64,000 nucleotides of DNA from Candidatus Latescibacterota bacterium. Its GTDB lineage: Bacteria > Latescibacterota > UBA2968 > UBA8231. The stretch lies in NCBI GenBank assembly GCA_965243025.1, contig CBDETY010000003.1, positions 5,638,198 through 5,702,197 of the forward strand, read 5' to 3'. Within the stretch, counting starts at the first letter, position 1. Every line of letters starts with the position of its first letter. Of the stretch, positions 51,625 to 52,869 are shown piece by piece. Made by a program: the position numbers and the translations under genes. The notes under the pieces were generated by a model that was not told the DNA's origin, made no database searches, and worked only from the letters and a program-made list of their open reading frames with translations.

Positions 51625-52869
51625 GTGGGTACTCCAATGGTCTGCAACTACGAGGAACTGGCTGCTCTGACCAGGGCGGCTCGAGCAGGGGATCTGCGCG
51701 CCTACGGCCGAATCGTCGAGTTGACCCGCAACTCGGTGGAGGCGGCGGCGCGGGTAATCATTCACAACCCCGAAGATGCGGAGGATATCGCGCAGGAGAC
51801 CTATGTGCGCGCCTTCGGTCAGCTCGCAAACCTGCAGGACGCCGCCTCGCTGCCGGCGTGGCTCCAGCGCATCGCCCGGAACCTGGCGCTGAACCGCAGG
51901 CGGGCCAGCCGCTGGTCATTTGTCAGCGACTTCGATGTGTCGCAGATCGCCCAGCCGGATGCCGATGCCGATGAACTCGGTCCGGCGCTCGCCCGGGCCC
52001 TTGTCGGACTGGGCGGCGAGGATCGCCAGCTGTGCGAGAGATACTACCACGGCGGTTGGACCACGGCGCGTCTGGCCGGCGAGATGAAGATCAGCGAGGT
52101 CGCTGTCCGCAAACGTCTGCAACGCGTCCGCGAACGCCTGCGAAAGGGAATCGCCATGACCGGAATGGATCTGCCCGAGCGCATCGTCGAACTCCTGTCA
52201 AAGCCGAATCTGACCGCCCTGCCGGAAAACCCGGTGGGAGCTGTCTGGGAGGCATTCAAGCGTCAGTACGACGGTTTTTCAGAGGTCGAGCTCGAGGAGA
52301 GAATCGACCCTGAAAAGGTCAGGGAGATCCTCGCAAATGCCGGCAATGGGCCGCTCGAAGAGTACCTGACAGCGGCGAGCCGCCAACAGTGGCTGCGGCG
52401 TGCGCTCACGGTGCCGATGGTGATGGAAGCAGCGGGCAGGGAGGCCCCGGTGCAGCTGATCGCCACGGGGAAGACCTACCGGATAGACAACGGGGAGGAG
52501 AGCAGTACCAAACTGCACGCCTTTCATCAGGCCGAGGTGCTGTGGGTCGGGGAAGGTTTGAGCGAGTGGCAGTTGATGGCGCCGTTCAGCGAGTTCATCC
52601 GGGAACTGAACCCGGAAATGGAGCTGCGCATCCATCATTTCGACTACTCGCTCCACTCGGAGCGGGGATGGAAGATTGCGGTTCAACTGCGGGGAATGGA
52701 ATGGAGTTCGATCGCGGGGTTGGGTCGGATGAAAGCCAGTCTCCTCGAGGCCCTGGGGTACGACTCGGACCGGTTGACGGCCGTCGCGCTCGGAGTGGGT
52801 CTGGAACGCCTGGCCATGATGCAGTACGGCATCGATGACATCCGCCGGATGGAGGCCGAGCGCGTATAG
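51625..52869 (+). CDS. ECF-type sigma-70 factor fused to a PheS-like class II aminoacyl-tRNA-synthetase catalytic-core domain
   Basis: N-terminus: sigma region 2 ([14 protein letters not shown] ... [16 protein letters not shown]) and region 4 ([41 protein letters not shown]). C-terminus (about aa 195-414): [60 protein letters not shown]. These parallel E. coli PheS LLRTQTSGVQ, APGRVYRND..THTPMFHQMEGL and [22 protein letters not shown] (from memory). Start is GTG 51625 or ATG 51637. Confidence 0.75.
   Translation: [414 protein letters not shown]

Follow-up and report, generated by a model that had tools for sequence, protein, structure and literature searches.

Extracytoplasmic function (ECF) sigma factors of the ECF41 group recognise an experimentally defined promoter of the form TGTCACA-n16-CGTC and carry a fused regulatory domain (Wecke et al. 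2012, PMC3426412). The main text of PMC7826278 states that C-terminal extensions of ECF sigma factors typically accompany the absence of an anti-sigma factor, and names as extension types the tetratricopeptide repeats (TPR) of ECF42, the Cys-rich domain of ECF238 (CorE), the SnoaL-like domains of ECF56, ECF294 and ECF295, and the DUF1835 domain of ECF264. Here we analyse a gene with another extension, found in a 64,000-nucleotide stretch of the genome of a Candidatus Latescibacterota bacterium (contig CBDETY010000003.1; this whole stretch is called the window). A single uninterrupted open reading frame (ORF) at 51625-52869 on the forward strand, encoding 414 aa when read from a GTG at 51625, joins an ECF sigma factor to a domain related to the catalytic core of PheS, the alpha subunit of phenylalanyl-tRNA synthetase (PheRS) and a class II aminoacyl-tRNA synthetase (aaRS). 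This architecture is real, widespread and strongly constrained, and the domain that it offers as a putative sensor is an unexpected one. Judging from sequence features, we lean towards a one-component ECF sigma factor that would activate its own gene and would be gated by a PheS-derived sensor of ATP and an amino-acid ligand, in place of an anti-sigma factor.

A sigma factor joined to a PheS-type catalytic core

The N-terminal part, about 176 aa (residues about 10-176), has the make-up of an ECF sigma factor. Region 2 was recognised by its Pfam model (Table 1), and the general ECF model of NCBIfam, TIGR02937, was passed with 62.9 bits against a cutoff of 42.9. Region 4 followed, with the Pfam model Sigma70_r4 covering residues 125-174 at 23.3 bits, slightly below its cutoff of 24.1. 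Neither region 1.1 nor region 3 was matched in the fusion protein by Pfam or NCBIfam profiles. By domain content and curated model the protein is therefore an ECF (group IV) member of the sigma-70 family, as had been proposed for residues 1 to about 175 in a first-pass annotation that was made by reading the sequence without database searches. In an AlphaFold2 model made from 34 family members, the region 2 helices reached predicted local distance difference test (pLDDT) values of 79-92. Within region 4, the residues C137, Y141, H142 and W145 are invariant in the columns of the family alignment.

The C-terminal part matched the Pfam family PF01409 (tRNA-synt_2d) at residues 251-410 with an E-value of 2.7e-27 and 96.3 bits against a cutoff of 19.8, covering positions 77-236 of the 246 in the profile. 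Its best sequence matches in the PDB were PheS alpha chains (from M. tuberculosis, E. coli, Acinetobacter, Pseudomonas and Thermus, with E-values down to 1e-15), and ECF sigma factors of the SigL, SigH, SigE and SigW types ranked after them. A profile of the family aligned with E. coli PheS at E=1e-30. The modelled domain was predicted with pLDDT values mostly between 86 and 97; confidence was low in the linker between regions 2 and 4, in the junction and in the motif 2 loop. When this model was compared with known structures by Foldseek, 221-227 residues superposed on PheS alpha cores with target template modelling (TM) scores of 0.70-0.73 and root mean square deviations of 3.0-3.5 Å (for instance 6p8t_D with TM 0.73 and 3.0 Å, and 4p71_C with TM 0.70 and 3.4 Å; also 6oz5_A), and the second fold family after PheS was that of O-phosphoseryl-tRNA synthetase (SepRS). 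Because the superposition spans this many residues, the fold reaches back to about residue 195, though the sequence match starts only at residue 251. The proposal that a PheS core extends from about residue 195 to the end was thereby substantiated, and the C-terminal part gave the significant class II aaRS match (PF01409, PDB PheS chains at E=1e-15, Foldseek) on which that proposal had been made to depend.

The domain is nevertheless not PheS proper. The equivalog model for PheS, TIGR00468, was matched with 88.2 bits against a cutoff of 237.45. The fit to the model for the PheS-related mystery ligase SrmL (NF051887) was poorer than that to true PheS, at 60.1 bits where 300 are required. With a median isoelectric point of 5.3 and a charge of about -8, the C-terminal domain is acidic. 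Net charge was considered as an indicator of tRNA binding and rejected, since the E. coli PheS core is acidic as well and the measure does not discriminate.

Conservation within the protein peaks where the two parts meet. Mean pairwise identity is 68% in the junction (residues 181-206), 60% in region 4, 49% in the PheS core and 48.5% in region 2, and the junction follows the consensus LPxRIVELLS[KR]PxLTxLPENPVG. A frameshift or misassembly at 52.15-52.25 kb, joining two separate genes, had been named as the finding that would undo the fusion. Such a misjoin is excluded, because the ORF is continuous, its G+C content is even (0.60-0.66 along the gene), the same fusion occurs in independent genomes and the junction is the best conserved part. 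The PheS core is as conserved as region 2, and the fusion appears to be under selection in many lineages.

A search with the fusion protein among 5.8 billion proteins returned 598 matches. Of the best 120 of these 598, almost all are 405-435 aa long and contain both PF04542 and PF01409, at identities down to 38%; their source annotation reads only "sigma-70 family RNA polymerase sigma factor". Scanning one genome per GTDB species gave at least 80 loci, and in about 70 of them the fused ORF is complete and unbroken. Most hosts belong to Acidobacteriota (Vicinamibacterales, Bryobacterales, Solibacteraceae and Terriglobia), with others in Gemmatimonadota, Latescibacterota, Planctomycetota (Phycisphaerae) and Myxococcota, and they include one cultured organism, Paludibaculum fermentans T20B24 (L062; loci and protein clusters are cited by L and P numbers). 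The closest relatives among the matches listed come from a Latescibacterota chromosome (88% identity) and a Gemmatimonadetes metagenome-assembled genome (MAG; 86%). Altogether the same fusion was recovered in more than 100 protein clusters and about 75 independently assembled genomes from several phyla.

When the C-terminal domain alone was used in an exhaustive HMMER search, 130 representatives were obtained at E<1e-10. Besides the group that holds the window protein (clade A), there is a second, larger and more PheS-like group (clade B) that keeps HPV and GRVFR, ends in LWxxPYV and is likewise joined to an ECF sigma factor, whose region 4 sequence differs. With the clade B member P0194 as query, 981 matches were obtained at E<=1e-10, and more than 120 clade B clusters of 415-425 aa come from Planctomycetota, Phycisphaerae and Hydrogenedentes. 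Clade B as compiled here comprises P0194, P0265-P0382 and the loci L211-L219; P0194 is longer (596 aa) and carries an extra C-terminal GNAT acyltransferase/acetyltransferase domain. Both clades share an 8-residue insertion in the segment RI[IV]ELL[SG][KR]PxL before (H/N)PV, which is absent from canonical PheS and argues for their common origin. Some matches of 226-266 aa looked like stand-alone PheS-like cores. This was rejected, as several of them (P0128, P0133, P0137) start inside region 4 and look like truncated gene calls. The family is large, with hundreds of clusters at 90% identity in the two clades, and it is common in soil Acidobacteriota and in Planctomycetota.

To compare active sites, 108 full-length clade A proteins were aligned with E. 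coli PheS (from NC_000913.3). In the motif 2 region G282, K283, Y285, R286, F300, H301 and Q302 are invariant, and E304 is present in 107 proteins. Motif 3 is kept to a similar degree (G392 and L393 in 107 each, E394 in 103, R395 in 105). L257-R258 is invariant and T262 occurs in 103 proteins; this LR..LT element aligns with LLRTQTS of PheS, with Ser replaced by Thr. The C-terminal element YGIDDIR is almost invariant. By comparison with the structures of T. thermophilus and E. coli PheRS, R286 is presumably the Arg of motif 2 whose partner is the alpha-phosphate of ATP. Likewise F300 is presumably the adenine-stacking Phe, the Gln and Glu of FHQxE presumably hold the alpha-amino group of the substrate, and R395 is presumably the motif 3 Arg.

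The side-chain pocket is different. FPFTEPS is replaced by the family pattern [YF]-x-[ML]-(Y)-C-x-[RQ]-[GA]-W, in which the position of E. coli F248 is still aromatic (Y in 79 and F in 27 of the 108), that of F250 is M (62) or L (41), that of T251 is C (86), and a new Trp, W349, appears in 98. The position of E. coli E252 is variable and G296 is kept. At the position of A294 the family has G (100 proteins) and at that of Q169 it has D (75) or E (27), with Ala in the window protein at both. Because the F248 position stays aromatic, the Phe pocket is remodelled rather than erased. The motif 1 region (residues 207-255) is the least conserved part of the domain at 29% identity, the HHPAR loop is absent, and the sigma module stands where PheS has its N-terminal tRNA-binding coiled coil. 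Taken together, this pattern of sites suggests that binding of ATP and of the amino-acid backbone is retained and side-chain specificity altered, with the usual means of binding tRNA-Phe absent.

These alignments agree with what had been read by eye. LRxxLT pairs with LLRTQTS, GKTYR...FHQAE with GRVYR...FHQME, and motif 3 with its PheS counterpart, all in the family-profile alignment with E. coli PheS; the divergence of FPFTEPS was seen as well, and is refined by the aromatic Y/F at the F248 position. The suggestion that charging may be lost and that nucleotide or amino-acid binding could persist is consistent with the retained ATP and alpha-amino residues, the changed pocket, the missing coiled coil and a PheS score far below the cutoff. 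As a separate observation, the invariant C137, Y141, H142 and W145 of region 4 together with W315 and W349 of the core, two Trp residues absent from canonical PheS, form a candidate interdomain contact surface.

Table 1. Positions of the fusion gene, its domains and motifs, and its predicted promoter in the window (residues are those of the 414-aa protein).
Feature	Window position	Residues	Strand	Basis or detail
Predicted ECF-type promoter, GTCACAATCTGTCGATTGTGGTGTCCT	51594..51620		+	-35 GTCACA 51594-51599; -10 GTGTCCT 51614-51620
Sigma/PheS-like fusion ORF	51625..52869		+	stop codon TAG 52867-52869
Sigma-70 region 2	51718..51915	32-97	+	PF04542, E=6.5e-12, 45.5 bits (cutoff 24)
Sigma-70 region 4	51994..52146	124-174	+	PF04545, PF08281
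Junction	52165..52242	181-206	+	helix and 8-residue insertion relative to canonical PheS, then NPV (HPV in E. coli PheS)
PheS-type class II aaRS catalytic core	52207..52854	~195-410	+	PF01409, Foldseek, family profile
Class II motif 2 region, GKTYR...FHQAE	52468..52536	282-304	+	family alignment
Remodelled side-chain pocket strand, in place of YFPFTEPSA	52636..52671	338-349	+	family alignment
Class II motif 3	52777..52809	385-395	+	family alignment

A promoter motif in front of the fusion genes

The family genes share a promoter-like motif. For 74 non-redundant family genes, bipartite pairs of a 5-mer and a 4-mer were enumerated over 200 nt of upstream sequence, and the pair GTCAC-N16-TGTC was present in 66 of these 74 regions; in 20 shuffles the best pair of any kind reached 7. 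The spacing was 16 in all 66 cases, with the start codon following about 30-115 nt after the motif. Positions outside the search pattern were conserved too: GTCAC is followed by A or G and, two positions on, by T, a G precedes TGTC, and the T that follows TGTC[CT] is invariant. The full consensus reads GTCACA-N15-TGTCYT. The eight loci lacking the exact motif have GTCACA with a variant -10 element (CGTC, CATC or TGAC) or a mis-set start. In the window, the copy before the fusion gene is the sole match in 64 kb, with 0.03 expected by chance; it scored 33 with the position weight matrix (PWM), and the next best site scored below 12. A blind metagenome scan for GTCACANTN12GTGTCYTT pointed the same way: 19 of the 120 matches returned, and 19 of the 37 on contigs of at least 58% GC, were directly upstream of a family gene.

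The layout is that expected of an ECF promoter, a -35 element and a GTC-type -10 core about 16 nt apart, and it stands before the sigma gene itself. Because the family promoter sits in front of the family gene, the fusion gene is probably positively autoregulated. A scan for sigma-70-type promoters and terminators around the fusion gene gave nothing useful. In clade B, the six loci L211-L216 carry a related but distinct pair, G[TA]A[AT]CCTT ... GGG[AT]CTT, about 20-45 nt upstream of the gene, as would be expected if the sigma factor and its own promoter co-evolve.

Several observations concern these upstream regions in their own right. In these clade B 5' regions (for example those of L213 and L216) the pair is followed by a perfect palindrome, AGAAGGCCTTCT, right before the start codon, which could be an operator or an RNA hairpin. 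The strongest promoter match of all (PWM 36.5) is on the metagenome contig Ga0184633_10006256 (L125), where the ORF that follows matches only the first ~30 and the last ~18 family residues and looks like the remnant of an internal deletion. The start of the window gene can also be placed in two ways: at the in-frame GTG at 51625, only 6 nt past the -10 element, where the closest relatives (L010-L013) have an ATG, or at an ATG at 51637 that gives 410 aa, the length of database cluster P0001. The proximity of GTG and -10 element at 51621-51639 hints at a leaderless or near-leaderless transcript in the subclade of the window gene. Leaderless mRNA was rejected as a family trait, since the start is 4-10 nt from the -10 element in only 13 of 66 loci.

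The fusion gene appears to be monocistronic and is not embedded in a conserved neighbourhood. We compared the window with 12 distinct contexts, six of clade A and six of clade B, and found neither in the window nor in any of these neighbourhoods an anti-sigma gene, pheT, a carrier protein gene or a conserved operon partner. A conserved gene neighbourhood was rejected as a source of functional clues, since the contexts have no genes in common and even a 68% identical relative does not share the downstream gene, which in the window is convergent. The upstream neighbour at 48973-51576 on the forward strand encodes a STAND-like protein of 867 aa with an AAA_22 P-loop domain, a MarR-type winged helix-turn-helix and six TPR_12/TPR_10 repeats. 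It is absent upstream of the gene in the 88% identical relative (L011) and is unlinked to the sigma gene in relatives, and neither it nor the fusion protein matched the anti-phage defence models of PADLOC.

Three further leads from the surroundings can be noted. A gene for a 281-aa MDMPI_N/DinB-like protein starts 15-44 nt downstream of a promoter match (PWM 28-31) in L164 (1021-1866), L180 and L189. We keep it as a lead only and not as a regulon member, because the three contigs are closely related and the gene could equally be an ECF41-type target. Near clade B genes, aaRS genes occur within 6 kb in L211 (a tRNA-synt_2 type gene and ProRS, 1591-3105 and 10217-11962), which additionally has a tRNA_anti-codon/HD protein, and in L212 (ThrRS, 8317-10224). 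A linkage of clade B to aaRS genes was rejected, as these were seen in two of the first three contexts, in none of the next three and in none of the six clade A contexts. Finally, directly downstream of the clade B gene in L214 lies a gene (9456-11336) for a 626-aa ECF sigma factor with a HEAT-repeat C-terminal extension, which places two extension-bearing ECF sigma factors in tandem.

Possible modes of action of the synthetase-derived domain

In the reading that we lean towards, the module of regions 2 and 4 would direct RNA polymerase to GTCACA-N15-TGTCYT and thereby drive its own gene. The PheS-derived domain would bind ATP together with an amino acid or a metabolite resembling one, perhaps held as an adenylate, and its occupancy would be relayed through the conserved junction helix, switching the sigma module between states that are competent and incompetent for RNA polymerase. 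The C-terminal domain would in this way stand in for an anti-sigma factor, analogous to the fused extensions of ECF41 and ECF42, and transcription may be tied directly to amino-acid and ATP status. Ligand binding, the direction of regulation and promoter recognition are the predicted elements of this proposal; it builds on the observed architecture, fold, conservation and spread, on the association of promoter and gene, and on the lack of conserved neighbours.

Several results weigh against this proposal. A complete adenylation site would suit a working enzyme no less than a sensor. At two pocket positions the window protein differs from the family consensus, with A260 where the family has D or E and A388 where it has G. 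The AlphaFold2 model has a predicted TM score (pTM) of only 0.53 and, for residues 171-200, pLDDT values of 50-68, and it does not demonstrate that the C-terminal domain docks on region 2 or region 4. No further PWM sites were present in 1.12 Mb of related loci besides those before family genes, nor was any regulon member other than the gene itself within 6 kb in the related loci (1.1 Mb). Targets other than the gene itself must then lie elsewhere, or may be few as in ECF41. The promoter could in principle also be read by another ECF sigma factor of ECF41-like specificity.

The first of these points leads to the alternative that fares best, namely a regulator that is also an enzyme. In BirA, a winged helix-turn-helix repressor is combined with a biotin ligase of class II aaRS-like fold, and the bound acyl-adenylate is the effector. 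By analogy the fusion protein might be a working adenylate-forming ligase, acting on tRNA or another acceptor, whose bound aminoacyl-AMP switches the sigma module; sigma activity would then report amino-acid supply against acceptor demand, and in an extreme version the enzyme would be the main output, with the sigma part serving mostly self-expression. We regard this as a minority possibility. In its favour are the invariance of GKxYR and FHQ and the presence of E304 and GLER in 103-107 of 108 proteins from several phyla, the finding that neither the 64 kb window nor 1.1 Mb of loci held any promoter copy but the gene's own, and the additional GNAT domain of the clade B member P0194. Non-catalytic aaRS-derived regulators (HisZ and the HisRS-like domain of GCN2) have, as far as is known, lost parts of the catalytic set, and the catalytic paralogs EpmA/PoxA keep it; this contrast, too, was counted in favour of a ligase. 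However, the 12 contexts show no conserved gene for an acceptor, a carrier protein or a partner, family members vary at the E. coli E252 position, and a PheT-like gene is not adjacent; bacterial PheS is not known to be active without PheT.

A broader version of this idea is that chemistry in the protein's own aaRS-derived active site switches the sigma factor; the site would either make and hold an aminoacyl-adenylate, as BirA does with its adenylate, or read uncharged tRNA, as GCN2 does. We think this unlikely. If true, amino-acid or charging status would be translated into the choice of promoter by RNA polymerase along a route separate from ppGpp, T-boxes and attenuation, and such a sensing route would exist in Acidobacteriota, Planctomycetota, Gemmatimonadota and their relatives.

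Its tRNA-reading half is the more doubtful when taken alone. Here the PheS-like core would bind deacylated tRNA, be it tRNA-Phe or another, during starvation and release or activate the sigma module. The domain does descend from a tRNA-binding enzyme, its CCA-accepting active site is conserved, and the aaRS genes within 6 kb in two of the six clade B contexts are a weak hint of a link to translation, but the remaining four clade B contexts and every clade A context lack such neighbours. In PheRS the coiled coil and the beta subunit carry most tRNA contacts; in the fusion protein the sigma module takes the place of the coiled coil, and the locus encodes nothing equivalent to the anticodon-binding beta subunit. 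The acidity of the C-terminal domain (isoelectric point 5.3) also counts against tRNA binding, hardly in a discriminating way. We therefore consider a sensor of uncharged tRNA improbable.

More improbable still is a switch of partners with PheT, in which a retained alpha/beta interface would let free PheT, or a class II-like partner, sequester the sigma factor and so couple the regulon to PheRS assembly. The PheS alpha core packs against the beta subunit in PheRS, and both the alpha core fold of the fusion protein and the lack of a dedicated anti-sigma gene nearby would suit such a switch, but the region of the motif 1 interface (207-255) has fallen to 29% identity, the HHPAR loop is missing and pheT was not co-localised in any context examined.

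Lastly, that a neighbouring ECF sigma gene and a pheS paralog were joined by frameshift or misassembly, or that the gene is a decaying pseudogene, we give next to no credence: frameshift-split relatives in some long-read MAGs (L069, L074, L079, L082, L087) show that such errors occur in this type of data, but the gene is one continuous ORF of even base composition, about 70 intact full-length copies exist in independent assemblies including one isolate genome, the junction is the best conserved segment, and apparent stand-alone C-terminal matches mostly begin inside region 4.

Comparison with known systems

The nearest described relatives of the fusion family in design are the ECF41 sigma factors. 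In both, regions 2 and 4 are followed by a large cytoplasmic domain fused at the C-terminus, an anti-sigma gene is lacking, and the detectable regulon is very small. Their promoters differ little: ECF41 uses TGTCACA-n16-CGTC and the fusion family (T)GTCACA-N15-(G)TGTCYT. They differ in the extension itself, which is SnoaL/NTF2-like in ECF41 and a class II aaRS core in the fusion family, and in the neighbouring genes, as the carboxymuconolactone decarboxylase, oxidoreductase and epimerase genes of ECF41 loci were present neither in the window nor in the six clade A contexts. The fusion protein falls outside ECF41 by its score as well, with 43 bits for the ECF41-like model PRK08241 against a cutoff of 240. 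We take M. tuberculosis SigJ to be the ECF41 representative, and none of the sigma chains listed in the PDB search was named SigJ.

No other ECF subfamily claimed the protein. The best NCBIfam subfamily model, TIGR02989 (the Rhodopirellula/Verrucomicrobium family ECF model), gave 74 bits against a cutoff of 124.55, and the others were far below theirs, so that no subfamily cutoff was reached. The main texts of the ECF reclassification paper, of a 2022 review of non-canonical ECF sigma factors and of a paper on ECF evolution mention no sigma-aaRS fusion, and full-text literature searches returned none. The view of the first-pass annotation that the fusion lies outside known ECF groups thus holds for the NCBIfam subfamilies and for the papers that classify or review ECF sigma factors, whose main texts name neither tRNA nor a synthetase. 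It holds less firmly for the full catalogue, since the architecture may be listed without discussion in ECF supplementary tables or the ECF Hub, although we think this rather unlikely. With ECF42 and CorE-type sigma factors the family shares the logic of an extension of its own that replaces the anti-sigma factor, and none of the extensions named in the main text of PMC7826278 is an aaRS domain.

What sets the family apart is thus the nature of the domain. To our knowledge, the ECF extensions characterised to date are all either repeat domains or scaffolds that bind small molecules or metals. A near-intact aaRS active site would add a class of input, be it ATP with an amino acid, an adenylate or tRNA. 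Acidobacteriota and Planctomycetota are rich in ECF sigma factors, very few of which have been studied; the conserved promoter of the gene itself would offer an immediate experimental read-out, and the cultured Paludibaculum fermentans a starting organism.

Compared with canonical PheS, the fused core shares the fold, motifs 2 and 3, FHQxE and the LR..(S/T) element. It differs from PheS in the coiled coil, HHPAR, FPFTEPS, the A294 position and the adjacent pheT, and in having the 8-residue junction insertion. Assessed as PheS proper, then, it has the ATP motifs 2 and 3 and lacks an equivalog-level score, the coiled coil and pheT partner, and the Phe pocket. SrmL is also a diverged PheS paralog, and the fusion protein scores far below the SrmL cutoff; our literature search for SrmL found nothing.

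As a regulator, the fusion protein would extend the short list of aaRS paralogs recruited for regulation (HisZ and GCN2, with BirA as a relative in fold). It resembles BirA in that a module targeting transcription to DNA is combined with a domain of the adenylate-forming type, the modules here being a sigma factor and a PheS core for which adenylation is predicted. The HisRS-like domain of GCN2 senses uncharged tRNA and HisZ senses histidine, and both have, as far as is known, lost catalytic residues. The fusion protein is like them in reusing an aaRS-derived domain, and unlike them in keeping the residues presumed to bind ATP and the alpha-amino group, and in having as its output a sigma factor rather than a kinase or HisG.

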